Below are positions 13,325-38,292 of a stretch of 64,000 bases of DNA, piece after piece. Source of the stretch: a virus; IMG/VR virus record IMGVR_UViG_3300037231_000129, positions 34,025-98,024 of that record, one strand, 5' to 3'. Under the pieces are notes generated by a model. The model was not told where the DNA came from and ran no database searches. It worked only from the letters and a program-made list of their open reading frames with translations. Positions within the stretch are counted from its first letter, which is position 1; every line of letters begins with the position of its first letter. A program made the position numbers and the translations under genes.

Positions 13325-13381
13325 GTGCCTTCCCTGTGATCAAGCAGGGCAGAGAGCTGGCTGCGCTCCAGCGAAAGGCAC
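13325..13381 (+). ncRNA. hammerhead-like ribozyme, type III, CAGAGA core (A1)
   Basis: stem III GTGCCT/AGGCAC, N17=T, stem I CCCTG/CAGGG, CAGAGA, stem II GCTGG/CCAGC, GAAA. Confidence 0.7.
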
Positions 13382-13387
13382 ACCCCA

Positions 13388-13756
13388 ATGTTCAACGCAA
13401 TCCTCCCCGTCGTTCGTCCCGTCGCCATTGCTGGCGCCCGGGTTGCCGGCGGCATCGCCATTGACGTGACCAAGACCGCTGCCGGCGTCGTTGTCGGTAT
13501 CGCGCTCGCGGTCGGTCTGGTTCGTGGTCTCAACAAAATCGAAACCACGTATCAGACGGTCAAGACCCGCCGCCAGGCGCGGCAGATCGCCAAATCGGTG
13601 GCTCAGGAAATCGCAAAACGCAATCTCCTGGCCTCCAACGGCTTTCTGCACCGCGACCAAGTGGCTCCTCAGCTGCACGCTGAGATCCAACGGATGATCG
13701 ACAATGGCCGTCTGGTCCTTGTCGCCGATCCGATCTCCGATGAGCTCGCCGCGTAA
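13388..13756 (+). CDS. hypothetical protein with hydrophobic N-terminus
   Basis: ATG 7 nt after motif A1. Confidence 0.65.
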   Translation: MFNAILPVVRPVAIAGARVAGGIAIDVTKTAAGVVVGIALAVGLVRGLNKIETTYQTVKTRRQARQIAKSVAQEIAKRNLLASNGFLHRDQVAPQLHAEIQRMIDNGRLVLVADPISDELAA

Positions 13757-13801
13757 GCGGCGTGCCTTCGGGCCTCCTAAGACCACGCCGCACCATGCGG
13801 C

Positions 13802-13860
13802 GTGCCTATCCAGCACCGCTGGACAGAGAGCCGAGACCTGTCCGTCTCGGCGAAAGGCAC
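13802..13860 (+). ncRNA. hammerhead-like ribozyme, type III, CAGAGA core (A2)
   Basis: GTGCCT-A-TCCAGC acc GCTGGA-CAGAGA-GCCGAGAC ctgtcc GTCTCGGC-GAA-AGGCAC. Confidence 0.75.
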
Positions 13861-13868
13861 ACCCCAAT

Positions 13869-14138
13869 ATGCCCACCCCCACAGAAGAAATCCTCGATCC
13901 CTCCGATGAAGAGCTGGTCGAGACCCTACGCTGCATCAACAGCCTGGCTCGGCTCCGTGAAATCATGGGCGGCCGCCTCGGCAGCTCTGATCCAACGGTC
14001 GCACTCTTGGTAGCGGTCATCTTCCGTCTCGAGCGCGACTACCAAACGGATTCGAGCGAGGCTCAGCGTGACGAAATCAGACGCCTGGTGGCTTCGGAAA
14101 AAAGACACGAAATCACCAGCCTGCTGAATTCGCTATAA
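13869..14138 (+). CDS. hypothetical protein
   Basis: ATG directly after motif A2. Confidence 0.6.
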   Translation: MPTPTEEILDPSDEELVETLRCINSLARLREIMGGRLGSSDPTVALLVAVIFRLERDYQTDSSEAQRDEIRRLVASEKRHEITSLLNSL

Positions 14139-14155
14139 GAACCTGGCGCAAGCCA

Positions 14156-14214
14156 GGGCCTTCCCCACCCCGTGGGGCAGAGAGCCGGGACCTGTCAGTT
14201 CTGGCGAAAGGCAC
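14156..14214 (+). ncRNA. hammerhead-like ribozyme, type III, CAGAGA core (A3)
   Basis: GCCT-T-CCCCAC/GTGGGG-CAGAGA-GCCGGGAC/GTTCTGGC-GAA-AGGC. Confidence 0.7.
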
Positions 14215-14220
14215 ACCCCA

Positions 14221-14541
14221 ATGACTTTCAAATCCTTCCTGTCGGCGACCGGCAGCGCGATCGGTGCCACGGCAAAGATCATGAACGACGTCGCCATGAC
14301 CAATGCACGTGGCAATCTCCTGTTGAGGCTTCCGACCGAGATCGACAAGATCGATACCGCATTCGGAACCTTGACAACCGATCTTCACATGCTCGCCGCC
14401 TACGGCAAACCGAGCTCTTCCGAGCAGCTTCGCGCTACGCGGGAGATCTCTGACAAACTGGCAGCTTTGGCCGCCAAGCTTGTCGCAACATCCTCCGAAC
14501 TCGCGGCTTTGGCCGGGGCCAAGAAGATGAGCCCCGCATGA
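14221..14541 (+). CDS. hypothetical protein
   Basis: ATG directly after motif A3. Confidence 0.65.
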   Translation: MTFKSFLSATGSAIGATAKIMNDVAMTNARGNLLLRLPTEIDKIDTAFGTLTTDLHMLAAYGKPSSSEQLRATREISDKLAALAAKLVATSSELAALAGAKKMSPA

Positions 14542-14545
14542 CGGG

Positions 14546-14603
14546 GCGCCTTTCCAGCACCGCTGGACAGAGAGCCGAGACCTGTCGTCTCGGCGAAAGG
14601 CAC
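14546..14603 (+). ncRNA. hammerhead-like ribozyme, type III, CAGAGA core (A4)
   Basis: GCCT-T-TCCAGC/GCTGGA-CAGAGA-GCCGAGAC/GTCTCGGC-GAA-AGGC. Confidence 0.7.
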
Positions 14604-14608
14604 ACCCA

Positions 14609-14731
14609 ATGCTCAAAACTCTTACCCGAAAACTCCTGGTCACAGGCGTTGCGCTCCTATCGGGCGCCACGGTGGCCGGGATCACTCTCGCGATCATCTC
14701 CGTCAAGGGCGCGAAAGGCGCACCCGAATAA
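14609..14731 (+). CDS. 40-aa predicted membrane microprotein (not in ORF track)
   Basis: MLKTLTRKLLVTGVALLSGATVAGITLAIISVKGAKGAPE; ATG directly after motif A4. Confidence 0.6.
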   Translation: MLKTLTRKLLVTGVALLSGATVAGITLAIISVKGAKGAPE

Positions 14732-14753
14732 CCAAACTGCCCCTCTCGTAGGG

Positions 14754-14809
14754 GCGCCTTCCCCGCACCGCGGGGCAGAGAGCATCCCTGCAATGGATGC
14801 GAAAGGCAC
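14754..14809 (+). ncRNA. hammerhead-like ribozyme, type III, CAGAGA core (A5)
   Basis: GCCT-T-CCCCGC/GCGGGG-CAGAGA-GCATCC/GGATGC-GAA-AGGC. Confidence 0.7.
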
Positions 14810-14815
14810 ACCCCA

Positions 14816-15202
14816 ATGAGTTTTGCTTCATCCTTCGGCCAGCCGCTCGCGCGTACTGGCCTTAATTTGCTTCGTGGGTCCACGATCCAGGCCATCGCCC
14901 GCACTGTGGGCGTTGTCGCTGCCGCGGGTCTCCTCGGAGCAGTCTACCACGTCGTCAACGACGAGGCCCGCAACGTCGTCCAGCTCGCCCGCTTGCGAGG
15001 CCAGTACCGCCGGCACCGCCACGATCGAATACTCGTAGCGACGCTCGGCACGGCTCTGGATCCGCAGCTGCAATACCAGCTGCTCTCGTCGCGGGATGCA
15101 TTCAAACGCATCACACGCCTGCTGGTCGATCCGGCCGTCGACGACGTCTCACGTAACCAGCTGCGCCAAGCCATTGTCATGGCCTGCTCGCAGCCGGTTT
15201 AG
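14816..15202 (+). CDS. hypothetical protein with one hydrophobic segment
   Basis: ATG directly after motif A5. Confidence 0.65.
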   Translation: MSFASSFGQPLARTGLNLLRGSTIQAIARTVGVVAAAGLLGAVYHVVNDEARNVVQLARLRGQYRRHRHDRILVATLGTALDPQLQYQLLSSRDAFKRITRLLVDPAVDDVSRNQLRQAIVMACSQPV

Positions 15203-15251
15203 AACGGGTATCATACCCTTTCTCGTTCCCGCTTTGGTCCACCAAAGCGGG

Positions 15252-15316
15252 CGGGATACCCTCTCGACTGAGAGGGGAGTCCAGCCGGCCGCTCTGAAAG
15301 CGCCGACGAAATCCCG
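15252..15316 (+). ncRNA. divergent hammerhead-like motif, type III, GAGTCCA core (A6)
   Basis: CGGGAT/ATCCCG stem III, CCCTCTC/GAGAGGG stem I, G3-C8 swapped core, CGAAA. Confidence 0.45.
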
Positions 15317-15329
15317 AAAGGCACACCCA

Positions 15330-15746
15330 ATGGCCAAATCCAAGCTGTCCGAACGCATGCTTCCTGTGCGAGGTTCCAAGCAATCACATGAATTGCTGAT
15401 AGAGCTGGTCGCCGAACTTAAAATGGCGGCCGAAGAAGGCACTGTCTTGCATTATGCGCCTGTTTTGGACGCTTACGTGTCAAAGCGTAAAGCCAAACAG
15501 ATAAACAAATGCTTTGAGGAAATGCTCGACGAAGTTTTGCTTCGAAAATTGACGACCCTCGAATTTTTGTTTGTTGCGGCTAGACTCTGGCATTTCGCCA
15601 AGCTAGAAACAAATATGACGATGCCGATCCAAGCACGTCCATACTTACCCAAGCTGTTCGATCTCGCCGAAGAATTCGGCGTCGCGGCAGCGGATATCGC
15701 ACAAATCGAAATCGACCATGTCGTGAACCCGCCGCCCGATGATTGA
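15330..15746 (+). CDS. hypothetical protein
   Basis: GAAAGGCACACCCA-ATG leader shared with cluster. Confidence 0.65.
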   Translation: MAKSKLSERMLPVRGSKQSHELLIELVAELKMAAEEGTVLHYAPVLDAYVSKRKAKQINKCFEEMLDEVLLRKLTTLEFLFVAARLWHFAKLETNMTMPIQARPYLPKLFDLAEEFGVAAADIAQIEIDHVVNPPPDD

Positions 15747-15752
15747 TCGGGC

Positions 15753-15811
15753 GGGCCTTCCCCGCACCGCGGGGCAGAGAGCCGAGACCTGCACGTCCCG
15801 GCGAAAGGCAC
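15753..15811 (+). ncRNA. hammerhead-like ribozyme, type III, CAGAGA core (A7)
   Basis: GCCT-T-CCCCGC/GCGGGG-CAGAGA-GCCGAGAC/GTCCCGGC-GAA-AGGC. Confidence 0.7.
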
Positions 15812-15816
15812 ACAAA

Positions 15817-15942
15817 ATGCCGTTCCTCCTCGCCCTGGCATTCATTTACCTGCCGGGTTGGGTCTGGCCCGCGCTCATCATTTTCGCGTTGATCGCGCTG
15901 CTAGTGCCCGGCCTTGCACCCCCCAGAACCGGCGGTAAGTAA
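15817..15942 (+). CDS. 41-aa membrane microprotein
   Basis: MPFLLALAFIYLPGWVWPALIIFALIALLVPG..; ATG directly after motif A7. Confidence 0.6.
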   Translation: MPFLLALAFIYLPGWVWPALIIFALIALLVPGLAPPRTGGK

Positions 15943-15978: not shown

Positions 15979-15984
15979 ACAACC

Positions 15985-16304: not shown

Positions 16305-16910
16305 ATGTTACTCACCGACGACCAGGCCACACGCATCAACGGCCTTCTCCGTGCCACGCGGCCGTTCGCCAAATTGCCGGCGACGAACCAGCGACCCATG
16401 AACACCACGTGGCAAGCACTGAACGACACGTTGATGTCGATGCGGCTCCCCCTCTATCACAGATCCCTGCGCAAGCCGGTTCCCACGGAGAAGGTCTACG
16501 AGGCCGCCGTGCAGAATGGGCTTGCACTCCTCGGCGCGTTCGCGGCGACGCTTGGCACCAAACAGGCCATCGTCAGCAGCCGCGGCCGCTGGATCGACCG
16601 CATCAGCTTTCAGCCCCGTCCCGACGGGATGAACTGGAATGCGGCGCATGCCATCTCCCCGGAGTATCTGGTCCAAAAACGGGCCAGTGATCCGAACCAA
16701 GCTGTCTCGTTGGAGGATTTCCTGTTCATGGCCGCCAAGACTACCTACGTGGTAGCCCGGCGGTCCGCAGGCGCGATCCCCGACATTACCGCTACCTTCG
16801 CCTTCGACGTCGCCTCCGATGGTGCGCCGACGGTCGATGGGGTGGTGCGAGAACACGGCGCCCAGACGCATAACGCGAGCTTGCTGCCGCTTTCTCCTTT
16901 CCGCCTTTGA
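16305..16910 (+). CDS. hypothetical protein
   Basis: TAAGGA SD within motif B2; ATG 16305. Confidence 0.65.
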   Translation: MLLTDDQATRINGLLRATRPFAKLPATNQRPMNTTWQALNDTLMSMRLPLYHRSLRKPVPTEKVYEAAVQNGLALLGAFAATLGTKQAIVSSRGRWIDRISFQPRPDGMNWNAAHAISPEYLVQKRASDPNQAVSLEDFLFMAAKTTYVVARRSAGAIPDITATFAFDVASDGAPTVDGVVREHGAQTHNASLLPLSPFRL

Positions 16911-16965
16911 GAAAGGCGCGCCCTTCGGGGCCGCTTATCCATGCACATCATCATGGACTGAAGAC

Positions 16966-16994
16966 TTGATTTCCCGCCTGATCATTACCATATC
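16966..16994 (+). promoter_or_regulatory. putative sigma70-type promoter for the large ncRNA
   Basis: TTGATT-N17-CATATC in an AT-richer stretch just upstream of the structured region. Confidence 0.5.
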
Positions 16995-20520: not shown

Positions 20521-21286
20521 ATTGCACCTCCCTGGTGATCGGGAATGTCTGCCACCGCTGGAGCGTCACATGCTCGGGCGGCGCGGTGCGGCCGCGCCCA
20601 GCCGGCGGCAGGGGCCACCCTTCATCGGTGCAGCCGATACAGTACCACCGCGTCTTGCGCCGCTTGCGCGCGGTGCGGAACCACGCAAGCCAGTCGTCGA
20701 AATCGCTGACCTCCGCATCAGTCAGCGGGCCGGTAGCGACAACGATATCGGTGCAGTGGGTGTTTTTCGAGGCCACCCCAGCGAGAGTGGCCGCGTTTAC
20801 CACCAAGTTCCACATATTGGGGCCACTGGCCCGCCAAACCTGCACGTGGCCACGATCTGGCATCATCACCGGATAGAGGCTGACGATCATCAGGCCGCCG
20901 TAGCCCAGCCGATAACTCCACCGAATCATACGCTTGACCGCCAAATTACTGACGTCAGCGGTCGACGGGTCGGCGTTGTAGGTAACCCAGCAAAGCTTCG
21001 GACCTGACCCCCAGGTATGGATCAACAGCTCGCGCCAGCGGGTCATATCGCTATCGTCCCAGCGTGGCTCCTCGTTGTCGTCACGCCACCGTCTCATGCC
21101 ACCACCATGAAATACCACGTGGCGCATCACTGGCTTGACCGGCCTATCGCGAGAACGAACCACGGGCGGCAACGTCACGCCGCTGCGTTTCAGCATTTCC
21201 TCGATGTCAACGATCGCGTCCATGCCGCCTCCTGCCACGGATGTGTCCATGATCATAGACCAAAAATCCGGATGGTCCAGCCTCAA
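20474..21286 (-). CDS. DUF1643-like protein
   Basis: R..L...WG.GP..CWV..N.DPSTAD..KR....GYGGLMIVSLYP. Confidence 0.7.
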   Translation of the reverse strand: MRLDHPDFWSMIMDTSVAGGGMDAIVDIEEMLKRSGVTLPPVVRSRDRPVKPVMRHVVFHGGGMRRWRDDNEEPRWDDSDMTRWRELLIHTWGSGPKLCWVTYNADPSTADVSNLAVKRMIRWSYRLGYGGLMIVSLYPVMMPDRGHVQVWRASGPNMWNLVVNAATLAGVASKNTHCTDIVVATGPLTDAEVSDFDDWLAWFRTARKRRKTRWYCIGCTDEGWPLPPAGRGRTAPPEHVTLQRWQTFPITREVQYGTAKSGGDPADTIS

Positions 21287-23214
21287 TCATCGTAGCGATC
21301 CTGCCATGACTGCCCCACCGGCTCGCGGAGAGCGTCAACCGACACCAGCTGCGGCGTGATCCGGGTATTGCTGAGGTTGTAGCGCATCATCGTGTCGCCC
21401 ACGGTCACGTAGTAAGACTCCTTTGACTTCCAGCTTCGCACCAGCATGTCGGAGTTTTCAAAGTTCGGGCGATGAATTGTCAGGCCGAAATCGCAGCGCG
21501 AATAGAAATTCTGTCCCCCACCGATGTCGTAACCGACGGGCACCGGATAACTGCCATCCTTGTTTTTCTCGCGCATGGTATGCGGGTGCACGATCAATAC
21601 GATATTAGTGCGAAGCTCTACCGCGAGCCCGACGCAGCCTTGCAAGACAACGCCCAGCCAATCGGTTTGCGTCTTGCGCCAGCCCTGTGGCATTTCGTCG
21701 TCGATTTCCTGCCACGGATCCCAGATTACCAGCTTGGCCCCGGTGCGCTTCACCGCTGAGCGTGTTGTTTCTTTCAACCAGGTGAGCGGGGCCGGTTTGC
21801 CGCGTTCCGGCCATGCGATGAAGCTCCAATATTTGTGGACCCATTCCTGATTGGTCATCAACGCGGTGGCGCGATCCATACGCTCGAGATGGGCATTGCT
21901 GAAAAATGGCTGTTGGGTGCGTTGGGAAATCAAATCGACGCTGACGCGTTTGTTGCTGACCTCGGCCGAGAACATGATCGTGTGAAACGGCCGGGCGAAT
22001 TGATTGACCTGCATCTGATCAATCGCATGTTCGGTCACCATGGTGCTGTAGGCTGTCCAGAATGCCGATTTGCCATGGCCTGGAATCCCCGTAGTGACCC
22101 AAAAACGTCCGTCGTCCGCCAGACTTATCCGTTGATCCAACGCCGCAACCCCGGTGATGAACCGCCCGCGTCCGATCCCGTCGTAGAGATTGCCGACTTC
22201 CTCGTCGGTGACGACTTCGATGCCCTCAAGCGGGTAAGGCTCGGCATGGTCGATCGCGAACCGCACGGCGTCACGGCCACGCTTGGACAAGGTATCCTTG
22301 GCGTCCTTGCAGCCTTCGGGCCAGCGGACCAGCCAACAGCGCTCCTTGCCCAGCCGGCGGGCGATCTCCTCGTGATGATTGGATCCGGCCAAATCCATGT
22401 CACCAGCGAGAATGATCTGCTTGAGGCGCTTCAGCTTTTGGTTGCTATGGAGGCAAATATACCTCTGATCGTCATCCGTGACCGGATCGTAGACCTTCGA
22501 CAGCTTCGCCGGGCTGCCGTCTGGCAAACTCGTGGTCTGGCGAAAGCCGGCCTCGACGCATGCCGCAACGTCGTCCTCGCCCTCCACGATGATACCGGTT
22601 TCATCGCTGACGAAGCTGTCGACATTGTAGAGCGATTGCTCGGCGTCCGGTTCCTGGCTGAACCGCTTCACCCCGCTGCTGTACACCGCCTTGTATTTGA
22701 CGTTCAGCAACGCGCCATCTTCGCGGTAGGGATAGGCGATCACCGGGCGCATGCGGCCGGCGCCGTCGATCTGCTTGCCGGCCTTGTCGATCGCCGGCAT
22801 GAAGCGCTGGCTCCGGTAGATGCCGAGCATCTGCACGGTAGCCTCGGAGATCCCGAACTTCGCGAACCAGGTCAGCAGCGATGCCGGGCGATCGATATCT
22901 TCCGGTGGTACCGGCCGCCGATAGACCTTCGGGGCCTGCTGGCGGCGCGGTGGTGATCCGGAGAGCCGGCGGCCGCCGGTGATGCCGCAGTTGTTCGCCC
23001 GGTGGCATACCCAGGTGAAGCCCTGCCCATCATCGTCGATCCGGACGTAGAAATTCTTCTCCCGCTGCTTGCCACCACCGCATTCGGGGCAGAACAGCTT
23101 GGAGCGACCACCGCCGTGGTTCTTGCCGGGTCGCGGCGCTTCGTGAAGCTCGATCCGCTCATCGTCGAGTAGCTCCTGCAGCGTTTCGCACGGCTGCTCG
23201 CCCTTCCGCGCCAC
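21283..23214 (-). CDS. bifunctional DNA primase-helicase (T7 gp4/Twinkle-like)
   Basis: CPECGG zinc-binding domain, TOPRIM IVEGEDD and DMD, CKDAKD, TGIPGHGKS Walker A, IWDPW, IVHP. Confidence 0.92.
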   Translation of the reverse strand: MARKGEQPCETLQELLDDERIELHEAPRPGKNHGGGRSKLFCPECGGGKQREKNFYVRIDDDGQGFTWVCHRANNCGITGGRRLSGSPPRRQQAPKVYRRPVPPEDIDRPASLLTWFAKFGISEATVQMLGIYRSQRFMPAIDKAGKQIDGAGRMRPVIAYPYREDGALLNVKYKAVYSSGVKRFSQEPDAEQSLYNVDSFVSDETGIIVEGEDDVAACVEAGFRQTTSLPDGSPAKLSKVYDPVTDDDQRYICLHSNQKLKRLKQIILAGDMDLAGSNHHEEIARRLGKERCWLVRWPEGCKDAKDTLSKRGRDAVRFAIDHAEPYPLEGIEVVTDEEVGNLYDGIGRGRFITGVAALDQRISLADDGRFWVTTGIPGHGKSAFWTAYSTMVTEHAIDQMQVNQFARPFHTIMFSAEVSNKRVSVDLISQRTQQPFFSNAHLERMDRATALMTNQEWVHKYWSFIAWPERGKPAPLTWLKETTRSAVKRTGAKLVIWDPWQEIDDEMPQGWRKTQTDWLGVVLQGCVGLAVELRTNIVLIVHPHTMREKNKDGSYPVPVGYDIGGGQNFYSRCDFGLTIHRPNFENSDMLVRSWKSKESYYVTVGDTMMRYNLSNTRITPQLVSVDALREPVGQSWQDRYDD

Positions 23215-25460: not shown

Positions 25461-25464
25461 CCCC

Positions 25465-25751: not shown

Positions 25752-25756
25752 ACCCC

Positions 25757-26062: not shown

Positions 26063-26064
26063 AC

Positions 26065-27482: not shown

Positions 27483-27533
27483 TCCGAACCTGGGCCACGC
27501 CCGGGCGCGGGCATTTCGCCCGCTTGAAAAGGA
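27483..27533 (+). ncRNA. hammerhead-like, type II, TTGAAAA core (B7)
   Basis: TCC-GAA-CCTGGGC/GCCCGGG-C-GCGGGC/GCCCGC-TTGAAAA-GGA. Confidence 0.65.
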
Positions 27534-27540
27534 ACACCCC

Positions 27541-29423: not shown

Positions 29424-29480
29424 CGAACCCCACCGCCCGGTGGGGACGCCGGCGATCAAGCCGGCACTGAGGAGTAACCC
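29418..29480 (+). ncRNA. hammerhead-like, type II, CTGAGGA core (B11)
   Basis: GGGTAAC-GAA-CCCCACCG/CGGTGGGG-A-cGCCGGC gatcaa GCCGGCa-CTGAGGA-GTAACCC. Confidence 0.7.
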
Positions 29481-29481
29481 T

Positions 29482-30303
29482 ATGGCAGATCTCGACATTA
29501 TCGAACTCATGCGGAGCCCGCTGACCCAAAGCGGGAAATCCTCGAACTTCCTGCGCCTGGTGCTGTCCGAAGCCGCAAGCTACGGCATGCCGGCGCAGGT
29601 GGTTGCTACACTCGACGACATAGCGGCGATGCTCGGCTACTACCGGCCCCTGCCAGAGGGGCAGGCCGTGCATCTGGCGGGTCCTCTTGTGCAATGGCGT
29701 ACCGACCGGCAACAGCCGGTGCTGGAACGCATCACGGAAATCGAAGGCCTGGCGCTCAAACAGCGTGCCCTCGTTGCTTTCGGCGGCGCACCACCCGACC
29801 ACCGGGTAGGCACCGCGGAGATCATCGTCGCGCTGTCCAACTGCCATAAGAGCTTCATGCCAAAGCCCTATTATGAGATTTGGGCATGGGCTTGTACCAC
29901 CGTCATGGCGCATCTGACCGGCGAAAACCCCGAGAAGATCCGCAAGACGAATGAGTGGCCGCAAGTTTTCGACAACGATGTGCTCCGCCCCGGCGGCCGT
30001 CTGCACCCCACTTACACGGAGATCGCCACCTCTATTCGTCGCGTCAGCATTGATTCGATGCGAGGCGATGAAGAAAACCCACGGGTCCGGCTGCGGCCCC
30101 TTGCTCTGGTGTTTCTCCACGCGCATCAACGGTATCTCAACGAAGCCAAGCACGAAGCTGGTTCCGTCGAGTTGCTACAGGTTGAGGCGGTGGAAAACGC
30201 GATCAAGTCGATCCACAGCATGTTTCCCGATATCACTCAGGACGAGATCAACGCCGTTGATTTCACTGAGGAAGTCTCAAAGCTCGCAGAGCTGAGCATT
30301 TAG
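29482..30303 (+). CDS. hypothetical protein (probable remote paralog of 33192-33779)
   Basis: GAGGAG SD within B11. Confidence 0.7.
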   Translation: MADLDIIELMRSPLTQSGKSSNFLRLVLSEAASYGMPAQVVATLDDIAAMLGYYRPLPEGQAVHLAGPLVQWRTDRQQPVLERITEIEGLALKQRALVAFGGAPPDHRVGTAEIIVALSNCHKSFMPKPYYEIWAWACTTVMAHLTGENPEKIRKTNEWPQVFDNDVLRPGGRLHPTYTEIATSIRRVSIDSMRGDEENPRVRLRPLALVFLHAHQRYLNEAKHEAGSVELLQVEAVENAIKSIHSMFPDITQDEINAVDFTEEVSKLAELSI

Positions 30304-30394: not shown

Positions 30395-30703
30395 ATGGCT
30401 GATCACAAACGAAAACCCGCCAAAACCACGAAATTTCCGAAAAAGTTTCGCATGAAACTGGAAAAAATCGTGGAGGCCAAAGCCGGGCGGGCATCGGAAG
30501 CGACGAGAGAAGAGGCATTCGACAAGATTGCCGACGTTCTCGGCCGCGAACTGCTGACGCCCGGCTCGGTCTACGCGACGCACACGGTGATCGACGAAGC
30601 GAATTTTCGTCTAACCTCGCGTCACTGGATCCAGCCGATCGACAAGCTTCGCTACCTGTCGGTTCCTGCTCCCTGGCTTCCCGAAACCCCGGCCTCCTCG
30701 TGA
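30395..30703 (+). CDS. hypothetical basic protein
   Basis: 102-aa ORF in cluster. Confidence 0.55.
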   Translation: MADHKRKPAKTTKFPKKFRMKLEKIVEAKAGRASEATREEAFDKIADVLGRELLTPGSVYATHTVIDEANFRLTSRHWIQPIDKLRYLSVPAPWLPETPASS

Positions 30704-30744
30704 GGCCGGGATATGCCGGCGATCAAGCCGACACTGATGAGGAA
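30678..30744 (+). ncRNA. hammerhead ribozyme-like, type II (B13)
   Basis: CC-GAAAC-CCCGGCCTC/GAGGCCGGG-ATA-TGCCGGC gatcaa GCCGACA-CTGATGA-GG. Confidence 0.75.
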
Positions 30745-30750
30745 CACCCC

Positions 30751-31074
30751 ATGAGATACTGCAAAATCATCAACGGATTGCTCTACGACACCGAGACTGC
30801 CGACCTGATCTGCGACATAACTCCGAAAGAGGCCGGCCAATCTCGCAGCGATTTCAACTACGATGACACTGGGCTCTACCGCACCCCCGGCAAGAGGTTT
30901 TTCATCGCCGGGGAAGGAGGTCCCACTTCCCGCTGGAGCACGCCTGTGAACAACGGTCTTTTCGAAGGCAATGGCCTGAGAGAAATTACCGAAGAAGAGG
31001 CAAAAGCGTTCGTCGAGGAATTCGCCTCGGTCGAGATGTATATCGCAGTTTTCGGCGAGCCCGATTCTGCTTAA
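30751..31074 (+). CDS. phage hypothetical protein
   Basis: KIING.LYDTETA..LYRT..GKRFFIAGEGGP.SRW motif. Confidence 0.7.
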   Translation: MRYCKIINGLLYDTETADLICDITPKEAGQSRSDFNYDDTGLYRTPGKRFFIAGEGGPTSRWSTPVNNGLFEGNGLREITEEEAKAFVEEFASVEMYIAVFGEPDSA

Positions 31075-31136
31075 GCGAAACCCCGGCCTCCTCGTGAGGC
31101 CGGGATATGCCGGTATTTCGCCGGCGCTGATGAGGC
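31075..31136 (+). ncRNA. hammerhead ribozyme-like, type II (B14), at end of cluster
   Basis: 38 nt identical to B13, then stem I TGCCGGT/GCCGGCG, CTGATGAG; no downstream + ORF. Confidence 0.7.
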
Positions 31137-31137
31137 C

Positions 31138-31923
31138 CTAAGCCGGCAACGATGCCACGTCCGCCGAGAGCGACGCCCAATCCAGGTCGGATGGAGCGAG
31201 CCCCGTGGTGGTGATCCAGAACCGCGACAGCGCGACGTCGGTGGCGAGCCAATACCTGGAGAGAAAATCAGGGTGCATCCACACCTGCTCCGCCCACGTC
31301 TCGCCATTGAGATAGCCGTCGCGCTGGCCGCCCACGGCAATGCTGTGCTGACCCCAGCCACCAGGCTCCCAGCCTGTCCCGGTGCCAGGCGCATCCCCCC
31401 AAGCACTCACCGGGGCCTGCAGCAGCGCCTCGGGCAGCGCCAGGGTGATGCGGACCGGGCCGGCCAGATCGATCGCCACCGGGGTGTCCGCCAGGTCAGC
31501 GTGCGTCCAGCCGATGACGTCGAGGTCGTTGGCCGGATTGCCGAGCGGCAACCCTTGCGTCGCCCACCAGGCCATGAACTCATTGGTGTTGGTGCCCGAG
31601 CCCATACCGGGTGGCGTGTAGCCCGTGCGCTGGGTGTACAGGCCGAGACAGCCGGCCGTCGTCGGCAAGTAGCTGTTCGGTCCCCAGGCATGATGTGCCC
31701 GGGCGCGGGCGATCTGGAAGGCGCTCACCTCGACGCAATTACCGGCGTCATTGTTGCCCAGCATGGGATCGGGGCCGCTAGCGAAATCGATCCCGTCGAA
31801 CCAGTCGGTTTCCGGTTTGGTCTGGGGCAGCTGCAGCAGTGAAGCGAAAGCGCGAATCACGGCGGGCCGGGGCGTATGGATCGCCCCGGTGCAACGTTCG
31901 ATCATCTTACTGTACCGAAGCAA
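31138..31923 (-). CDS. papain-like cysteine peptidase family protein
   Basis: MLGNNDAGNCV (Cys), GQHSIAVGG (His), ETW. Confidence 0.55.
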   Translation of the reverse strand: MLRYSKMIERCTGAIHTPRPAVIRAFASLLQLPQTKPETDWFDGIDFASGPDPMLGNNDAGNCVEVSAFQIARARAHHAWGPNSYLPTTAGCLGLYTQRTGYTPPGMGSGTNTNEFMAWWATQGLPLGNPANDLDVIGWTHADLADTPVAIDLAGPVRITLALPEALLQAPVSAWGDAPGTGTGWEPGGWGQHSIAVGGQRDGYLNGETWAEQVWMHPDFLSRYWLATDVALSRFWITTTGLAPSDLDWASLSADVASLPA

Positions 31924-32791: not shown

Positions 32792-32897
32792 GGGAATCCT
32801 CCAAATATATTAGGTTTATCCAGCGGATTGTTCATGCGCGCATTTTTGGTTTGCGGCGAGTCACAAAATCACAGGGTAGTGTTTCAATTTGATCTGT

Positions 32898-32953
32898 GAA
32901 AGCCCCGCATTTTACTAGGAGCTCTGCCGGCACCCCGCCGGCGCTGATGAGGA
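32898..32953 (+). ncRNA. hammerhead ribozyme-like, type II (B15)
   Basis: GAA-AGC..GCT-C-TGCCGGC/GCCGGCG-CTGATGA-GGA; weak stem II. Confidence 0.65.
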
Positions 32954-32957
32954 CACC

Positions 32958-33125
32958 ATGAAATACGCTGTGATTCCCAGCTCCTGGCTCACCACCGGCT
33001 GGGGCTGGAGCGCCCGCCGTCTCATTGTCCTGCAACGGATGGCGATGCGATACGAACTGCCGTTGGACGATCCAACGCGGCTGGAAGGCCTGTATCGCCA
33101 CGTCTGCTTTGAGATATGGCCTTAG
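32958..33125 (+). CDS. 55-aa hypothetical protein (not in ORF track)
   Basis: MKYAVIPSSWLTTGWGWSARRLIVLQ..; fills the gap between B15 and B16. Confidence 0.6.
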   Translation: MKYAVIPSSWLTTGWGWSARRLIVLQRMAMRYELPLDDPTRLEGLYRHVCFEIWP

Positions 33126-33187
33126 TGCGAACCCCTGCCTCCCGATCGGCAGGGGTCCGGGACAATCAAGTCCCGACTGATGAGCAC
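33125..33187 (+). ncRNA. hammerhead ribozyme-like, type II (B16)
   Basis: GTGC-GAA-CCCCTGCC/GGCAGGGG-TC-CGGGAC aatcaa GTCCCG-A-CTGATGA-GCAC. Confidence 0.75.
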
Positions 33188-33191
33188 CCCC

Positions 33192-33779
33192 ATGAAAAAC
33201 CAACCCTGCTACGTCTCCGCGGACGACAACAACATCAAATTGTTCCGGACCATGGCCGCCGTCGGTTTACCGATGAGCCTGCTGGGCCAATTGATCGCAA
33301 CGCTCCGCGTCGACCTGAATATTCCGATCGCGATGCTACGCTACGTGTTCGGACCGCTGGTCATACATGTGCCACCCGGCACCCCAAGCGGCGATATGGC
33401 ATGGCTTGACCGCAAAACCATCGATCGCTGGAAACCACGGGTTTACGTCGAACGACTGGAGATCCTGTGTGGCGAAGTACCAGACATCGTCTCGGCGACG
33501 GAAATCTGGCTGGTCACCACGAACGCACTTCATGAAGCACCACCGCGGCATCAGCTGGCGGAGGTTGTTCTATGGGCCGCGAATCGTGCGCTGATCCGCT
33601 CCGGTCAGGAGAACCCCTTGACCAAGGCCGACAACACCTATCGGCTGGCGTCGGATGAAGATGTCATCGAGGGCAACTATTCGATGGAATATCGCGAATT
33701 GTCCCGTCAGATCATCGCCAAGGTGATTGCACACAGCCAGATCGAGCGACGACCGCGCCGCGCCGCCGCGGCGGAATGA
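33192..33779 (+). CDS. hypothetical protein
   Basis: ATG after B16. Confidence 0.65.
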   Translation: MKNQPCYVSADDNNIKLFRTMAAVGLPMSLLGQLIATLRVDLNIPIAMLRYVFGPLVIHVPPGTPSGDMAWLDRKTIDRWKPRVYVERLEILCGEVPDIVSATEIWLVTTNALHEAPPRHQLAEVVLWAANRALIRSGQENPLTKADNTYRLASDEDVIEGNYSMEYRELSRQIIAKVIAHSQIERRPRRAAAAE

Positions 33780-34130: not shown

Positions 34131-35285
34131 ATGAGCGATCACGGAATTCCGTCCGGCTATAACGACCGCCACGACGTCGCCACGCGCGATCCCGAGATTC
34201 TTCGCCCCAAACCGGCCAGCTTGGTCTCGGTCAGCCCGGAGCTGGTCCAGGAGATCATCCGCAAGCTGACCGAGGGCGGCGCGGACGCGACGATCGTCAA
34301 GGCGATGATGGCCGCGTTGAACGCCGCCGGCGGCCAGTCCGAGCCGCTGCCGATCATGACCAACCCGGAGCTCGTCGCCAAAGCGATCATCGGTGTGATG
34401 GGGAAGGTCAAGGAAGTTGCGAAGAGCGGATACAACAAGGAAGGCAAGTACGGCTACGTCTACTTCGGTGATGTTAGAGCGTTGTTACAAGACGCTTTTG
34501 TCTCGGTCGGGCTTACCCTCAACCAACGGCAGGTCGGTAATCCCCGCGTCGTCGGCAAGACGTTGATGATCAAATACACCTTCGACGCTTTCACAGCGGA
34601 CGGCGGCATTATTCTCGGGATAACGACCACGACAGGCGCCTGTCGTTTCGAGTTCAAGAGCGGCACTTTTGACGACAAAGCGCCGAACAAGGCCTTCACG
34701 GCGGGTGAAAAATCGGCCATGACGGCGCTGTTCAAGATCGCGCCGGACGATAATCAAAGCGAACGAACCCTCGACGCGGATCCCGACACGCAAGGCATGT
34801 ATGACGAAGAGCCGGCCGAGCGTACCAACTTTCGCGGTCCGGATGATCGAGGTCGTGATCGTGGTCGTGATGAGCCCCGGCGGGGGGGCGATCGCCCGCG
34901 CGATGAACCGCGTGATCGCGGCCGGCGCGACGACCCACCGCGGGATGACCCGCCTCGAGGTGGCTACGATAATCGCGACGATCCGCCGAGCGATCGGGGT
35001 CGTGGCAGTCCCGATCGCGGCCGAGGCGGCGGCAACGCCGATGAACCGCCGGACGGACGATGGGATGACGGCCCTCGCGAGCCGCCGCCGTCCGACGTCA
35101 CCGCCGGCCACCGCGACCTGGTAACCGATTTCCAGCGCAAGCAGGATGCCTGCAGCTCGGAGGAGGATGCCGCCGCCTTGTGGCGGGATGATGCCGCATT
35201 GCTCACCGAGACGAACGACCGGACCTACACTCACCTGGTCGACACATACGAAAAACGGTGGGGCATTCGCCCGCCGGCAATCTAG
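34131..35285 (+). CDS. ERF-family single-strand annealing protein with R/D/P-rich tail
   Basis: KSGYN...YGYV..GDV...GL...DDKAPNKAFT..K..LF.I..DD..D.D; next to ssb. Confidence 0.8.
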   Translation: MSDHGIPSGYNDRHDVATRDPEILRPKPASLVSVSPELVQEIIRKLTEGGADATIVKAMMAALNAAGGQSEPLPIMTNPELVAKAIIGVMGKVKEVAKSGYNKEGKYGYVYFGDVRALLQDAFVSVGLTLNQRQVGNPRVVGKTLMIKYTFDAFTADGGIILGITTTTGACRFEFKSGTFDDKAPNKAFTAGEKSAMTALFKIAPDDNQSERTLDADPDTQGMYDEEPAERTNFRGPDDRGRDRGRDEPRRGGDRPRDEPRDRGRRDDPPRDDPPRGGYDNRDDPPSDRGRGSPDRGRGGGNADEPPDGRWDDGPREPPPSDVTAGHRDLVTDFQRKQDACSSEEDAAALWRDDAALLTETNDRTYTHLVDTYEKRWGIRPPAI

Positions 35286-35309
35286 CCCTCGATCACAAGG
35301 AAACATGCC

Positions 35310-35948
35310 ATGGCTTCCAGCGCCGCGAATATCACTGTCGTCGGTTACGTCGGACAGGATCCGGAAATCCGTAAACTCGATGGTGGTCGCGAGGTCTGCA
35401 CGATCTCGATTGCCGTCTCCGGTAAGACCGGGGGCGATGAGTGGACCAATTGGTACCGCTGCTCAATCTGGCGCGAAAACGACATAGATTTTATCGATAA
35501 ATACATCAAAAAAGGCGCCTACGTCGCGGTGTTCGGCGAGTTGCACAGCCGCGAATACCGCGACCGCGAGGGCTACGACAGGACGTCGATGGACGTCAAC
35601 GCGCAACGATTTATGTCGCTCGACAAGGGCGATGGCGGCGGCCGGAGCGGCGGCGATCGCGATCGCGGGCGCGGCGGTGACGATCGGACCCGGTCTGGCG
35701 GTGGGCGCGGCGACACCCGTGGTGCTGATCGGGGCCGGGGCGGTGATGACCGAGGCGGCGGGCGTGGTGATGACCGTGGCCGCGGCGACACCCGTGGTGC
35801 TGATCGGGGCCGGGGCGGTGATGACCGTGGCCGCGGCGGCGACGCGCGTGGCGCCGATCGGGGTCGCGATACCGGTGGCCGTGGCGGCGATACCGGGCGC
35901 CCGAATGCGCAGCGGGATGCTGACCTGGACGATGAGATTCCATTTTGA
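35310..35948 (+). CDS. ssb: single-stranded DNA-binding protein
   Basis: VGYVGQDPEIR..T.WYRC..W..KKG..V.V.GEL..REY.D; C-terminal DDEIPF. Confidence 0.95.
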   Translation: MASSAANITVVGYVGQDPEIRKLDGGREVCTISIAVSGKTGGDEWTNWYRCSIWRENDIDFIDKYIKKGAYVAVFGELHSREYRDREGYDRTSMDVNAQRFMSLDKGDGGGRSGGDRDRGRGGDDRTRSGGGRGDTRGADRGRGGDDRGGGRGDDRGRGDTRGADRGRGGDDRGRGGDARGADRGRDTGGRGGDTGRPNAQRDADLDDEIPF

Positions 35949-36490
35949 CCGTTCTAATAGTTACGGTCTAGGAACTATCTGAGGGAGGTATGTCATGTCA
36001 GTATCTGCAATACAAGTGAATTCGGCTCGGCGCGCGTCGAAGCTGGTGAAAACCAATGACTGACGAAGATCTGCGCAACCTTCGGGCAATGCTGGAAACC
36101 CGACGTTCCAGCAGTATCGAAATCATCCAAAAGTTTCCGTCGCCAGCACGGTTCGGCAGCAGTTCCGAGGAACTTCTCGTCGTCGTCCGTGAAGCCATGG
36201 CTTGGCGGGCGGCGGTGCGGTCGCAATCGCACGAACCGTTCACCACAATCCATGTTCTGCCGGGGGCCGCGCTGCGCCTGTTGCTCGAACCGACAGAGCT
36301 GGTCAGTGAAACCACCGGTCCAGTCGAGGTTCGGCTCTGGAAAGGCCTGACGAACCGCGGCACCGACGTGGCGGCCTTCATCATGGCCATCGGCTCGCAG
36401 TCGCCGGAATTCGATGCCGAGGTCGGTGCCCTGCTGCGTTCGACCGAGCCACCACCGATCGTGGAGTCCCCGCTCTGAAGGAAAGCCCTG

Positions 36491-36892
36491 TTGGCTGATC
36501 GTCGTCCAACCTACCGCGATGTCGAGCCCGTCCGCCACGCGGTGACGTACGAGGAAATGCAGGAAGCCAAGGTCTTTGTCGATCGCACGGCCAACGAGTT
36601 CGGGCGGCTGAAGGCGCGGTCAAAATACGAGAAGCTGGTGCTGGATGCCCTCCTGCACCGGCTCATCCGCGATTCAGACGCCAAGACGTACAAAATGCGC
36701 GAAGACGACGCCGAGGCCTCGCCGATCTATTTGCGCCAGGCCGAGCAATGGCTCGCGGTCGAGACACAGTGGAACCAGCTCGAGGCGAAGACCAAGGTCG
36801 AGTACACGAAAATCGAGATTTGGCGGACGATCAGCGCCAACGAGCGGATCCGCGAGCAATCGCCTGATTCAACCCGCGAAAGGAGATCATGA
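36491..36892 (+). CDS. hypothetical coiled-coil protein of the recombination module
   Basis: C-terminal KIEIWRT.SANER motif. Confidence 0.55.
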   Translation: MADRRPTYRDVEPVRHAVTYEEMQEAKVFVDRTANEFGRLKARSKYEKLVLDALLHRLIRDSDAKTYKMREDDAEASPIYLRQAEQWLAVETQWNQLEAKTKVEYTKIEIWRTISANERIREQSPDSTRERRS

Positions 36893-37615
36893 ATGCCAGG
36901 ATCAAAATCCCCGCGATCACCGGAATTCGTCAAGGAATTCACGCAATTATGGGAGGCAAAGACTGGCCCGAAGTGGACCTATACGACCTCCGATATGGGC
37001 CACCGACTGGGCATCACCAAAAATACCGTCTGCGGCCTGCGCAAGCGTTTGGACCTTCCGGAACGCGGGACCCCTCTGAGAGGAAACCTGACGTTCGTGA
37101 ACGGGAAACTGGTGCGCGAAAAAATGCCGCCCAGGCCACGAAAACCACCGCTAACCGTTGAAATCCCTGGCGAACCGATCCAAATCCCAAGAGCGCGGTG
37201 GCTTGAATGGTTCAACCGCCTCGAGTCTCCCCAGAAACAGCGAATAGCCGCCGCGATCCATCCCAGAGGCTGCGCCATGCTGGCGTCCGGTGGTGGCATG
37301 TGGGAATGCACCTGTGGCCTGTCGCTGCCCGGTACCGCGCTGGCGCGCACCGCATCGAAGCGCGAATGCGTGGCCGATGTGCCGGCGGAAGCGATCGCCG
37401 GGCTGGCATCGTCACCACCGTCTAAACGCAGGTCTCACACCGTCGCCGCAACTAGGCCGAGTCCCTTCCGGCGAACGGAGCCATGCTGTTGGCCGAATGG
37501 CCCCTGCGACGCCGAGGCGGTGCCAGGCAAGCCCTACTGCGTTGAACACTGGGAGCTGACCCACCAGAAATCGAGGCAGCCTGAGCGGCAGGAAGCTGCT
37601 CACGAGTCGGCGTAG
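36893..37615 (+). CDS. GcrA-family cell-cycle regulator homolog
   Basis: LW...SDMGHRLGITKNTVCGLRKRLDL HTH and CCWPNG..C.....GKPYC.EH C-terminus. Confidence 0.75.
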   Translation: MPGSKSPRSPEFVKEFTQLWEAKTGPKWTYTTSDMGHRLGITKNTVCGLRKRLDLPERGTPLRGNLTFVNGKLVREKMPPRPRKPPLTVEIPGEPIQIPRARWLEWFNRLESPQKQRIAAAIHPRGCAMLASGGGMWECTCGLSLPGTALARTASKRECVADVPAEAIAGLASSPPSKRRSHTVAATRPSPFRRTEPCCWPNGPCDAEAVPGKPYCVEHWELTHQKSRQPERQEAAHESA

Positions 37616-37931
37616 CCATGCCCGGGCGCTGCGCTAGCTGCCGCTCATGGGACGGTCATACGCAGGCTCGGTTGCGGCAGATGGGCAGTTGCGATCTCGA
37701 TGGCCAGCTCGTGCATGCTGGCTACGGCTGTCCATCGCACAGGCCCAGCGTGCGATCCCTCCAAGTTATTGTCGGCATGACCCTCACCGACCTGGTGCGT
37801 CTACGCCAAGACCACGGCGACGCGGCCGACCAGCTGCGCGAAGCGTGGCTCATCCTCTGGAAAAAACCTGACGACGATCCGACACGCTGGATGTTCGAAC
37901 GGCTGCTACGCGACTACCGCAACATACCGCC

Positions 37932-37981
37932 CTCCTGAAACAGCAATGTCCGCCGGTGATCAAGCCGGCACTGACGAGGAG
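37932..37981 (+). ncRNA. hammerhead ribozyme, type II, canonical core (B17)
   Basis: CTCC(T)-GAAA-CA gcaa TG-TC (GUC site, predicted cut after 37950)-cGCCGGT gatcaa GCCGGCa-CTGACGA-GGAG. Confidence 0.8.
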
Positions 37982-37989
37982 CACATCCC

Positions 37990-38292
37990 GTGCATCATCT
38001 TATCATCCACAATCCAGAAGGGTTCGCAGCGTTCACCGCCGCGGCCCACGAACGCGGCAAGTCAGCCGATTTCGCGCTGGCCTGGACGCGCTTGACCTGT
38101 CTGTTATTTGGCTATTTCGACCCGGACAATCCGGGGCGATCCATCGAGATCACATTTCCCGTGGATCAGACCCGCTCGATCCTCTGGGCGGTCTTCGATC
38201 CCTCGTACACACGCGGCCCCCGGCCGGGCATTCGGCTCGCCGGGGCCATGCTCTTTCACGAATCCGATCAGACCTGGGGGATCCACACATGA
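37990..38292 (+). CDS. hypothetical protein
   Basis: GAGGAG SD within B17, GTG start. Confidence 0.65.
   Translation: MHHLIIHNPEGFAAFTAAAHERGKSADFALAWTRLTCLLFGYFDPDNPGRSIEITFPVDQTRSILWAVFDPSYTRGPRPGIRLAGAMLFHESDQTWGIHT

Follow-up and report, generated by a model that had tools for sequence, protein, structure and literature searches.

Why would a phage carry some 24 hammerhead-like elements within 25 kb, set upstream of its small early genes, and what would self-cleavage do for the genes that follow? We analyzed a window of 64,000 nucleotides from a 98-kb phage and found 23 hammerhead-shaped three-way junctions and one degenerate copy on its + strand between 13323 and 37992. The preliminary description had given a range of 13325-37992, which fits these limits: the elements begin at 13323/13325, and the final start codon is a GTG at 37990-37992. 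We propose that hammerhead ribozymes and close variants punctuate two early operons, each fused to the translation start of the next gene, and that the phage is an alphaproteobacterial-type siphophage; we give this joint reading about an even chance of being correct. Co-transcriptional self-cleavage would cut the long early RNA up into mRNAs of one gene each. Every such mRNA would begin with a 5'-OH on the stem I hairpin, followed by a core remnant, the Shine-Dalgarno (SD) sequence, a spacer and AUG, and would end in a hairpin with a 2',3'-cyclic phosphate. That 3' hairpin would be stem III in type II elements or a conserved accessory hairpin in a second family with a CAGAGA core. The main pay-off would be a standardized, insulated and possibly stabilized leader for each gene. 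This layout gives phage hammerheads a testable job.

Element architecture and layout

A descriptor scan with constrained folds recovered 17 type II elements, all on the + strand, that share one order: stem II 5' strand, GAA, stem III hairpin, H17, stem I hairpin, 7-nt box and stem II 3' strand. Nine have a CUGANGA core, seven (C1-C7) have a UUGANAA core and one, B10, is doubtful. The boxes of B1-B10 read CUGAUGA, CUGAGGA, CUGACGA or CUGAAGA and keep the C3-G8 pair. In C1-C7 this pair has covaried to U3-A8, a documented natural and active hammerhead variant (Perreault 2011, PMC3088659).

Below, each element is given with its extent, the first base of its predicted 3' product and the first base of its start codon. 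C1 (15917-15987, UUGAGAA; product 15951, ATG 15985) and C2 (16234-16307, UUGAUAA; 16271, 16305) precede B10 (16902-16973, CUGAAGA), a type II-like element that ends the first array and lacks stem II. The second array opens with B1 (25373-25467, CUGAUGA; 25430, 25465), whose stem II has 5 bp (GGAUA/UAUCC), followed by B2 (25688-25759; 25719, 25757) and B3 (25995-26067; 26026, 26065). Next come C3 (27160-27242, UUGAUAA; 27202, 27240), C4 (27477-27543, UUGAAAA; 27507, 27541), C5 (28011-28078, UUGAAAA; 28041, 28076), C6 (28664-28726, UUGAAAA; 28689, 28724) and C7 (28921-28991, UUGAUAA; 28953, 28989), with a stem II of only 2 bp in C5 and C7. B4 (29416-29484, CUGAGGA; 29448, 29482) has seven of eight stem II positions paired. 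B5 (30674-30753; 30714, 30751) precedes the terminal B6 (31068-31142), which lies after the last + strand gene of its sub-array. B7 (32889-32960; 32925, 32958) has a weak stem II, B8 (33120-33194; 33158, 33192) has one of 4 bp (GCAC/GUGC), and B9 (37928-37992, CUGACGA; 37952, GTG 37990) is the last element.

The closing helices are short: those of the CAGAGA family have 4-6 bp and those of type II elements 2-5 bp. Roughly half of the type II copies have a stem II of just 2-3 bp, and nearest-neighbor folding predicts this stem in eight of 17 and not in the other nine. Position 10.1:11.1 is paired in 12 of 16 copies, gene-preceding or terminal, with B10 left out. At 15.1-16.1, nine copies have A-U and eight have C-G (B4, B8, C1, C2 and C4-C7); A15.1-U16.1 is near-invariant in hammerheads. 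The 1.1:2.1 position, which adjoins the core, is C.A in B1, B2, B4, B8 and B9. No copy reached the Rfam gathering threshold (37 bits, RF02276): B2 was the top match at 25.8 bits, six copies scored 17-26 bits and the remaining copies went unreported by the search.

Six further elements have type III topology and an invariant CAGAGA core: A1 (13323-13390; GCCU strand 13327-13330, product 13332, SD GAAAGG, ATG 13388), A2 (13800-13871; 13809, 13869), A3 (14154-14223; 14163, 14221), A4 (14544-14611, with 1.1:2.1 as U:A; 14553, 14609), A5 (14752-14818; 14761, 14816) and A7 (15751-15819; 15760, 15817). The degenerate A6 (15250-15332) retains only the GAAAGGC-spacer-ATG part (ATG 15330) and has no CAGAGA junction. 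The preliminary description had called these elements type III hammerheads. The topology bears this out but the core does not: none of the six copies between 13323 and 15819 contains the CUGANGA box characteristic of type III in RF00008. Instead U4 has become A and N7 is absent. Judged by its sequence, the family thus fails a defining hammerhead feature, and it matched no Rfam ribozyme model, hammerhead models included, even at E up to 10.

Across 20 copies of the family from four genomes, the six core nucleotides, GAA, G10.1:C11.1 and A15.1:U16.1 are invariant, and position 17 is U in 18 copies, C in one and A in one (A2), but never G. The three helices of the type III hammerhead fold covary: 93.7% of cells are paired, compared with 76.3% after shuffling, and the covariation score is 0.40, compared with 0.11 for shuffles and 0.12 or less for slid controls. 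Moreover, loop II always opens with CUG, complementary to the junction CAG, and in 13 of the 20 copies the fourth base of this loop pairs with position 2.1.

Are these elements ribozymes at all? Many of them, most notably the CAGAGA family and the copies with C15.1-G16.1, could be former ribozymes or a distinct fold that serves as a structured translation leader, a protein- or RNase-binding site or a 3'-end stabilizer. Although it differs from CUGANGA at two positions, the CAGAGA core does not vary, which implies selection for something specific. The CUG/CAG pseudoknot would be hard to fit into a hammerhead, the family has no Rfam match, and some variant cores are known to be inactive (Perreault 2011, PMC3088659). 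However, the other hammerhead hallmarks are kept, including an H17 that is never G, the very short closing helix suits product release, and the accessory hairpin conserved just 5' of the CAGAGA elements would cap the upstream product. Additionally, hammerheads with a canonical core lie in the same operons as the family, a genomic setting of the kind that has led to new ribozyme classes (Eckert 2023, PMC10085705). We consider it distinctly improbable that the elements are mostly non-catalytic leaders. Even on our preferred reading of operon-punctuating ribozymes, a sizeable share may be slow or inactive, given the sub-threshold scores, the C15.1-G16.1 and C.A pairs and the departures of the CAGAGA core.

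The arrangement of the elements exceeds chance. Twenty-one of the 23 directly precede ORFs, and GC3 coding periodicity is present in 21 of 22 ORFs after elements (these 21 and the ORF after A6). No ORF is truncated by a predicted cut, and every predicted type II cut falls 9-36 nt after the upstream stop codon. Similar prophage arrays cleave in vitro and in vivo, and clustered hammerheads flank single genes in prophages of Agrobacterium tumefaciens, Azorhizobium caulinodans and Clostridium scindens (Perreault 2011, PMC3088659). The phage resembles those prophages in having type II and III hammerheads interspersed among small phage genes, with one element to each gene or short block, in its U3-A8 covariation and very short stems II, and in the alphaproteobacterial hosts; processing of long transcripts into single-gene mRNAs was proposed there as well. 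It differs in its higher element density and in the CAGAGA sub-family, which that paper does not list. The paper also contains no occurrence of Shine-Dalgarno or ribosome binding, whereas in 21 elements here, nucleotides of the core and the closing strand make up the SD.

A Shine-Dalgarno sequence within the fold

How is the SD built into these elements? In both topologies it consists of the purines that end the core on its 3' side and the bases that open the 3' closing strand, with the start codon 7-14 nt beyond the SD-bearing segment. The preliminary description had made the SD part of the ribozyme fold, and our analysis confirms this. For type II it had specified the core end plus the 3' strand of stem II. 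This holds, although that stem is short and often unpredicted. The type II SD comprises G8/A8-A9 and positions 10.1-10.3 and reads GAGGA or AAGGA; B4 carries GAGGAG inside its core and B8 only a weak GAG. The start codon lies 7-12 nt past the box in 15 of the 17 elements.

All six CAGAGA-family copies in the window end in GAAAGGC followed by the spacer and ATG, and the AGG of the SD is paired in all 20 members from the four genomes. A 6-bp AGGCAC/GTGCCT pairing, as first described, is present in only two of the six window copies; the conserved helix is 4 bp, NCCU/AGGN. By topology, the cut equivalent to that of hammerheads falls 3' of the SD partner strand, and the predicted 3' product opens with the stem I hairpin, both as originally claimed. 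The product starts at the first base of stem I, or within 0-1 nt of it in the five B copies with C.A at 1.1:2.1.

Every one of the 12 16S genes sampled from the class has CACCTCCTTTCT at its end, to which GAAAGG and AAGGA are complementary, and the same SD forms stand in front of the ribozyme-free genes of the phage. Of the 15 type II copies that precede a gene, 12 open the 3' strand with an SD-like GGA or AGG, versus none of four with no adjacent start codon, two of them terminal in the window and two from other genomes (Fisher p ~0.009), again more than chance would give. We found no gene and no SD after B6 or B10; B6 has no start codon at SD spacing, and neither has an SD-like 3' strand. 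In two Rfam-grade type II hammerheads of other alphaproteobacteria, the SD lies outside the ribozyme.

Cleavage and access to the Shine-Dalgarno sequence

Does the cut release the SD? On our main reading, the SD lies in a closing helix kept to a minimum, so the 5' product would leave at once and the SD would be single-stranded afterwards. A folded ribozyme could hide the SD until the cut removes its partner, making cleavage a requirement for switching the gene on. This topology is that of engineered SD-masking switches, which include twister P1/P3 constructs (Felletti 2016, PMC5052635) and a hammerhead design cited there (ref. 13). Engineered and natural elements alike place the SD in a ribozyme helix, lose the opposite strand through self-cleavage (predicted here) and leave the freed SD on the 3' product. 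In addition to the pairing of the SD in every CAGAGA-family copy, the closing helix is present in the minimum free energy fold of A1, A5, B1, B4 and B8, and that of B4 extends to the base before the ATG.

The computed masking is absent for type II elements and modest for the CAGAGA family. Engineered anti-SD helices mask strongly by design, with 5- to 100-fold effects of cleavage on expression (Felletti 2016, PMC5052635), whereas the natural helices of 2-6 bp mask little or not at all in our calculations, and ligand control is not evident. In type II elements, opening the SD costs ~2-3 kcal/mol in precursor and 3' product alike. In the CAGAGA family, the cost falls from 5.1 to 3.8 kcal/mol on cleavage (mean ~1.3 kcal/mol), with zero unmasking in two of the six copies. 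For the type II copies, the probability of an unpaired SD in an unconstrained ensemble is 0.42 versus 0.46 between precursor and 3' product. These values come from nearest-neighbor models, which ignore tertiary and non-canonical core pairs that would also hold A8/G8 and A9. In these models, the earlier suggestion that cleavage frees the ribosome binding site finds no support in the type II elements and little in the CAGAGA family.

The position of the upstream genes also bears on this question. Fourteen type II copies follow an upstream gene, and in 13 of them its stop codon ends within about 20 nt of G12. It overlaps G12-A13 in B2 (TGA 25696-25698) and B9 (TGA 37936-37938), lies in the stem III loop in C1 (15940-15942), C2 (16258-16260) and B5 (30701-30703), and ends 1-3 nt before G12 in the other eight. 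The anti-SD strand in these 13 copies is the last codons of the upstream ORF, and therefore a terminating ribosome would melt it and expose the SD with no cut, contrary to the idea that cleavage is needed. Moreover, the degenerate A6 retains SD and spacer without a junction. Overall, the folding models lend weak support to cutting as a translation switch, and we regard cleavage-gated translation as unlikely. On our main reading, cleavage dependence is probably modest, with some in the CAGAGA family, B1, B3 (where the AAGGA of the SD pairs with an upstream UUUCU), B4 and B8, and little elsewhere.

The same geometry could work in the opposite direction, with translation controlling cleavage. Terminating or initiating ribosomes would block folding, so that only poorly translated RNA is cut and the ratio of polycistronic to monocistronic message is set. 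The first ribozyme strand is the end of the upstream ORF, with the stop codons placed as above, and the last strand transcribed is the SD. Since the SD is made of core residues (GA/AA of the box in type II; GAA and A15.1 in the CAGAGA family), pairing with 16S rRNA and the catalytic fold would be mutually exclusive. However, this argument is purely structural. In four of the six CAGAGA-family window copies, the upstream stops lie 18-48 nt before the GCCU strand, beyond the footprint of a terminating ribosome, and B1 has no upstream ORF. Such competition seems to us quite unlikely as the main explanation.

A proposed uniform leader for each gene

If cleavage is neither a strict switch nor a readout of translation, what would punctuating ribozymes provide? 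Downstream genes would share a uniform leader: a stem I hairpin at the very 5' end, then the 7 nt left of the core, the SD, a spacer of A and C only, and AUG. The spacers after elements are 92% A+C and 3% G, compared with 57% A+C in control spacers and 50% A+C and 30% G in the window. B1 lies upstream of the gene that opens its operon, within the 5' leader, so cistron separation cannot be its job, and the elements that lack an SD are the terminal, geneless ones. On these sequence features, a standardized leader for each gene, as the preliminary description had envisaged, is better supported than cleavage-gated SD release. Its further proposal of a stabilized leader is possibly correct by analogy with E. 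coli, where protection by a 5'-OH and a 5' stem-loop is established RNase E biology. In hosts that have RNase J, RNA with a 5'-OH end might be handled differently, glmS in Bacillus being an example.

RiboJ-type insulators (Lou et al. 2012) reportedly place the sTRSV hammerhead and a hairpin upstream of the ribosome binding site. There, as predicted here, self-cleavage strips variable upstream RNA and leaves a fixed leader with a 5'-OH and a hairpin. RiboJ is synthetic and its binding site lies outside the ribozyme, whereas in this phage the ribozyme and the binding site overlap, and stem I itself provides the hairpin. Ribozymes immediately 5' of an ORF and tied to translation also occur elsewhere: HDV-like ribozymes of R2 and L1Tc promote eukaryotic translation initiation (reviewed in PMC6765202), and hammerheads are found in 5' UTRs of RNA viruses (PMC13725137). 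Unlike the phage elements, these act in cap-independent, IRES-like eukaryotic initiation without SD pairing, and outside DNA phage operons.

Ribosome-binding sites within hammerhead-type elements

At the Rfam gathering score, a tRNA was the only match in the window. Relaxed thresholds added type II hammerheads, all of them sub-threshold, and left the CAGAGA-core family unmatched. Scanning with a type II descriptor (GAA, hairpin, 1-3 nt, hairpin, NUGANNA) followed by constrained folding identified 17 type II elements in the window, all on the + strand, of which ten carry a CUGANGA box (B1-B10) and seven carry UUGANAA (C1-C7). The UUGANAA box is the U3-A8 covariation of the C3-G8 pair, a variant that is natural and active (Perreault et al. 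2011, PMC3088659). Six more elements, at 13323-15819, follow the type III order: GCCU, one base, a hairpin, CAGAGA, a hairpin closed by G...C, and GAA-AGGC. The degenerate copy of this family, A6, retains the 3' part alone, which is exactly the Shine-Dalgarno (SD) sequence, the spacer and the ATG.

The preliminary description held that the SD is built into the ribozyme fold, and our analysis bears this out; the layout is real, is not random and has been conserved. In type II elements that precede a gene, the start codon comes 7-12 nt past the 7-nt box; the SD there is formed by G8 or A8, A9 and positions 10.1-10.3 and reads GAGGA or AAGGA. B4 has G at the free position N7, which gives GAGGAG within the core. 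For the CAGAGA family, the start codon follows GAA by 9-14 nt in all 20 copies aligned from four genomes, and the SD is GAAAGG, made up of G12, A13, A14, A15.1 and two stem III bases. These SDs are credible because they fit the 16S 3' end, which is CACCTCCTTTCT in 12 of 12 sampled genes of the alphaproteobacterial class, and because ribozyme-free genes of the phage use the same motifs, lengthened by AG or AT.

SD embedding is not automatic in hammerheads, since in two type II hammerheads of Rfam grade from other alphaproteobacteria the stem II strands are not SDs and the SDs come 15-45 nt further downstream, and the two terminal elements of the phage, which have no gene behind them (B6, 31068-31142, and the doubtful B10, 16902-16973), lack an SD-like strand. 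GGA or AGG opens the 3' strand in 12 of 15 gene-preceding copies versus 0 of 4 others (Fisher p ~0.009 by our own arithmetic). RF02276 matched twice across 151 genomes of the class, too few matches for a general rate of SD embedding. Convincing type II copies were not found in the related phages G001 and G002.

Perreault et al. (2011, PMC3088659) described hammerhead clusters that flank single genes in prophages of Agrobacterium, Azorhizobium and Clostridium, demonstrated cleavage in vitro and in vivo, reported U3-A8 covariation and stems II of 1-2 bp, and proposed processing into single-gene mRNAs; their text does not mention the SD or ribosome binding. Why hammerheads cluster between small phage genes has been an open question since 2011, and their purpose was still called unknown in 2019 and 2023 (PMC6765202, PMC10085705). 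We found no description of natural SD embedding in phage hammerheads in full-text searches of mostly open-access literature. Judged from sequence, the best interpretation of the elements is as hammerhead-type processing sites that have been joined to the start regions for translation.

A hammerhead-like family with a CAGAGA core

Public viral and bacterial contigs were scanned for the CAGAGA pattern. A loose scan returned mostly chance singletons, and a tighter two-gap pattern combined with a structural filter kept four genomes. Outside the window, the family is present in three records: 11 copies in a 91.5-kb viral contig, two in a 104.6-kb viral contig and one in an alphaproteobacterial MAG. 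Across the 20 copies, the proposed helices contain 93.7% standard-pair cells compared with 76.3% in shuffles, and the covariation score is 0.40 compared with 0.11 in shuffles and at most 0.12 in slid controls. GAA, G10.1:C11.1 and A15.1:U16.1 are kept in every copy. One unpaired base follows U16.1 (U in 18 copies, C in one, A in one and G in none), the outermost conserved pair of the closing helix occurs in all four Watson-Crick combinations, and the 1.1:2.1 pair is U.G, C:G or U:A.

The junction of stems I and II is always CAGAGA, in which, relative to CUGANGA, A replaces U4 and N7 is missing. Rfam ribozyme models did not match the family, even in a sensitive 2.5-kb scan, and we did not find the CAGAGA core in two published hammerhead surveys. 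We call the family hammerhead-like because the hallmarks are kept but the core deviates, with no match in Rfam or these two surveys. The family is real, on the evidence of these alignments, yet it is not a consensus hammerhead, and its catalysis is putative. Twister-sister, pistol, hatchet and hairpin ribozymes were rejected as identities given the lack of an Rfam match; the family presumably also fits the consensus features of these classes poorly. A tRNA-like RNase P punctuation signal was rejected because a T-arm-like hairpin is absent.

All 20 copies (13323-15819; loci L278, L279, L284 and L213) have CUG at the start of loop II, complementary to the CAG of the junction. The fourth base of the loop can pair with position 2.1 in 13 of the 20, including the two copies with A at 2.1, where the loop base is U. 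The base pattern suggests a pseudoknot between loop II and the junction, or an alternative fold, that would be hard to reconcile with a standard hammerhead.

Cleavage, ribosomes and access to the Shine-Dalgarno

With the cut placed after position 17 by hammerhead geometry, the predicted 5' product of a type II element comprises the stem II 5' strand (the anti-SD), GAA and the stem III hairpin, and the predicted 5' product in the CAGAGA family carries the GCCU strand. The strand that pairs with the SD was thus correctly placed 5' of the predicted cut, with the 3' product opening at the first base of stem I, as a matter of topology. All predicted type II cuts come after the upstream stop codon, by 9-36 nt, and would leave every ORF with its stop. 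A G+C-rich hairpin lies 0-12 nt upstream of the GCCU strand in 18 of the 20 CAGAGA-family copies and would close off the upstream product at its 3' end, like stem III in type II elements. Cut placement and upstream hairpins are compatible with a processing role.

Does cleavage free the ribosome-binding site, as had been proposed? Stem II has 2-5 bp and forms in 8 of 17 type II elements under nearest-neighbour energies with the core held open; in folds of whole elements, B1, B4 and B8 form it, C4 does so marginally, and C5 and C7 do not. The closing helix of the CAGAGA family has four conserved base pairs and 0-2 extra ones. We calculated the cost of opening the SD from structural ensembles, using a uniform 5-nt SD definition. 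For the B copies the cost was 2.3 kcal/mol in the ribozyme-constrained precursor, 2.8 in the unconstrained precursor and 2.8 in the 3' product; the corresponding values were 1.8, 2.5 and 2.1 kcal/mol for the C copies and 5.2, 5.1 and 3.8 kcal/mol for the CAGAGA family. Two of the six CAGAGA-family copies in the window gained nothing on cleavage in this calculation. Mean P(unpaired) of the SD was 0.42 before and 0.46 after cleavage in a separate unconstrained run. All these models omit tertiary structure and non-canonical core pairs, and their results are a minimum estimate of masking rather than a disproof. The modelled evidence that cleavage unmasks the SD is weak: the predicted gain is modest in the CAGAGA family (5.1 to 3.8 kcal/mol), and no unmasking is predicted for type II. 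A need for cleavage would apply to a minority of copies at best.

The upstream ribosome offers another route to the SD. Fourteen type II elements follow another gene of their array. In 13 of them, that gene's stop codon is found across G12-A13, within the stem III loop or with its end 1-3 nt short of G12, which makes the anti-SD strand the last part of the upstream ORF. On this arrangement, a ribosome terminating there would melt the anti-SD; the SD would become accessible and the ribozyme fold would be prevented, with no cleavage needed.

The other part of the earlier proposal, a defined leader for each gene that is capped by a hairpin and otherwise unstructured, fits the sequence evidence better than the form in which cleavage is needed. 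A and C account for 92% of the spacer that separates SD from start codon, with G at 3% and T at 6% (270 nt from 35 elements in four genomes), compared with 50% A+C and 30% G in the whole window and 57% A+C in control spacers. This A/C spacer is common to families of different topology. A tract of A and C only cannot pair with itself. A leader role is also supported by the degenerate copy A6, in which SD, spacer and ATG are what has been retained. In view of the folding results, the effect may be to standardise leaders rather than to act as an on/off switch. In array 2, B1 occupies the 5' leader of the opening gene, downstream of an AT-rich divergent intergenic region; separating cistrons is therefore not its job, and it could replace the primary 5' end.

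Loop I reads RAUCAA(G) in nine elements from all three families (B1, B4, B5, B8, B9, a C1-like copy, C6, C7 and A1), at 13335-13346 and in type II copies within 15917-38000. A pseudoknot between loop I and the 3' tail, as in type II hammerheads (Perreault et al. 2011, PMC3088659), was dropped as a candidate, since loop I, mostly RAUCAA, has no complement in the A/C-rich tails.

A more ambitious reading, which we consider unlikely, is that the ribozyme-RBS cassettes are a natural expression device in which cleavage and ribosomes gate each other, together with an active CAGAGA core variant that uses a pseudoknot. The same nucleotides would be contested by the catalytic fold and by 16S pairing, and through this competition self-cleavage and ribosome loading (termination upstream, initiation downstream) would gate each other, setting mRNA form, stability and translation gene by gene. 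CAGAGA would then be an undescribed hammerhead core variant, active and held by the pseudoknot of loop II and junction. 

The layout itself, in which ribozyme and RBS share nucleotides about two dozen times in one phage and which is kept in relatives, provides a concrete hypothesis for the clustering. Engineered switches with the SD in a ribozyme helix show 5- to 100-fold dependence on cleavage (PMC5052635). The phage layout would also be the naturally occurring equivalent of such RBS-masking switches and of the RiboJ-type insulators built in synthetic biology, and could supply compact parts ready for use.

Genome setting and cassette history

The window corresponds to bases 34025-98024 of a 98,024-bp viral record rated 96% complete. 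By protein family matches, the elements belong to the early region of a tailed phage, that of replication and recombination; the matches include a primase/helicase (21283-23214, - strand), a replication initiator (23218-24537, - strand), an Erf-like annealing protein (34131-35285) and SSB (35310-35948). Two tail proteins were matched as well, a tail tube protein and an Rcc01698-like one, the latter typical of alphaproteobacterial phages. The genes behind the elements are nearly all ORFans; GC3 is the top codon position in 21 of 22 ORFs that follow elements, as in annotated genes, and these ORFs are thus coding-like. A megablast search of INPHARED phages with 13300-38000 found nothing, and no related loci were found via the Erf-like protein. 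A tRNA gene lies just upstream of array 1 at 11449-11521 on the - strand (Rfam, 64 bits), with a putative GAA (Phe) anticodon as the loop reads in the alignment.

Neighbouring cassettes have long identical stretches in common at 27240-27786 and 30682-31113, B5 and B6 have an identical stem III, and C4 closely resembles C5. The identical stretches suggest that units of gene plus element were duplicated. Between the gene at 13388-13756 and A2 lies an orphan 5' half-element (13749-13775), consisting of a hairpin with a stop codon in its loop followed by GUGCCUU, which resembles what is left of a duplicated cassette. Ahead of array 1's first gene (ATG at 12944), an AT-rich promoter-like tract precedes GAAACG, G+C-rich hairpins, UAAGGAAC and an A/C spacer at 12866-12946, which may be a decayed type II element.
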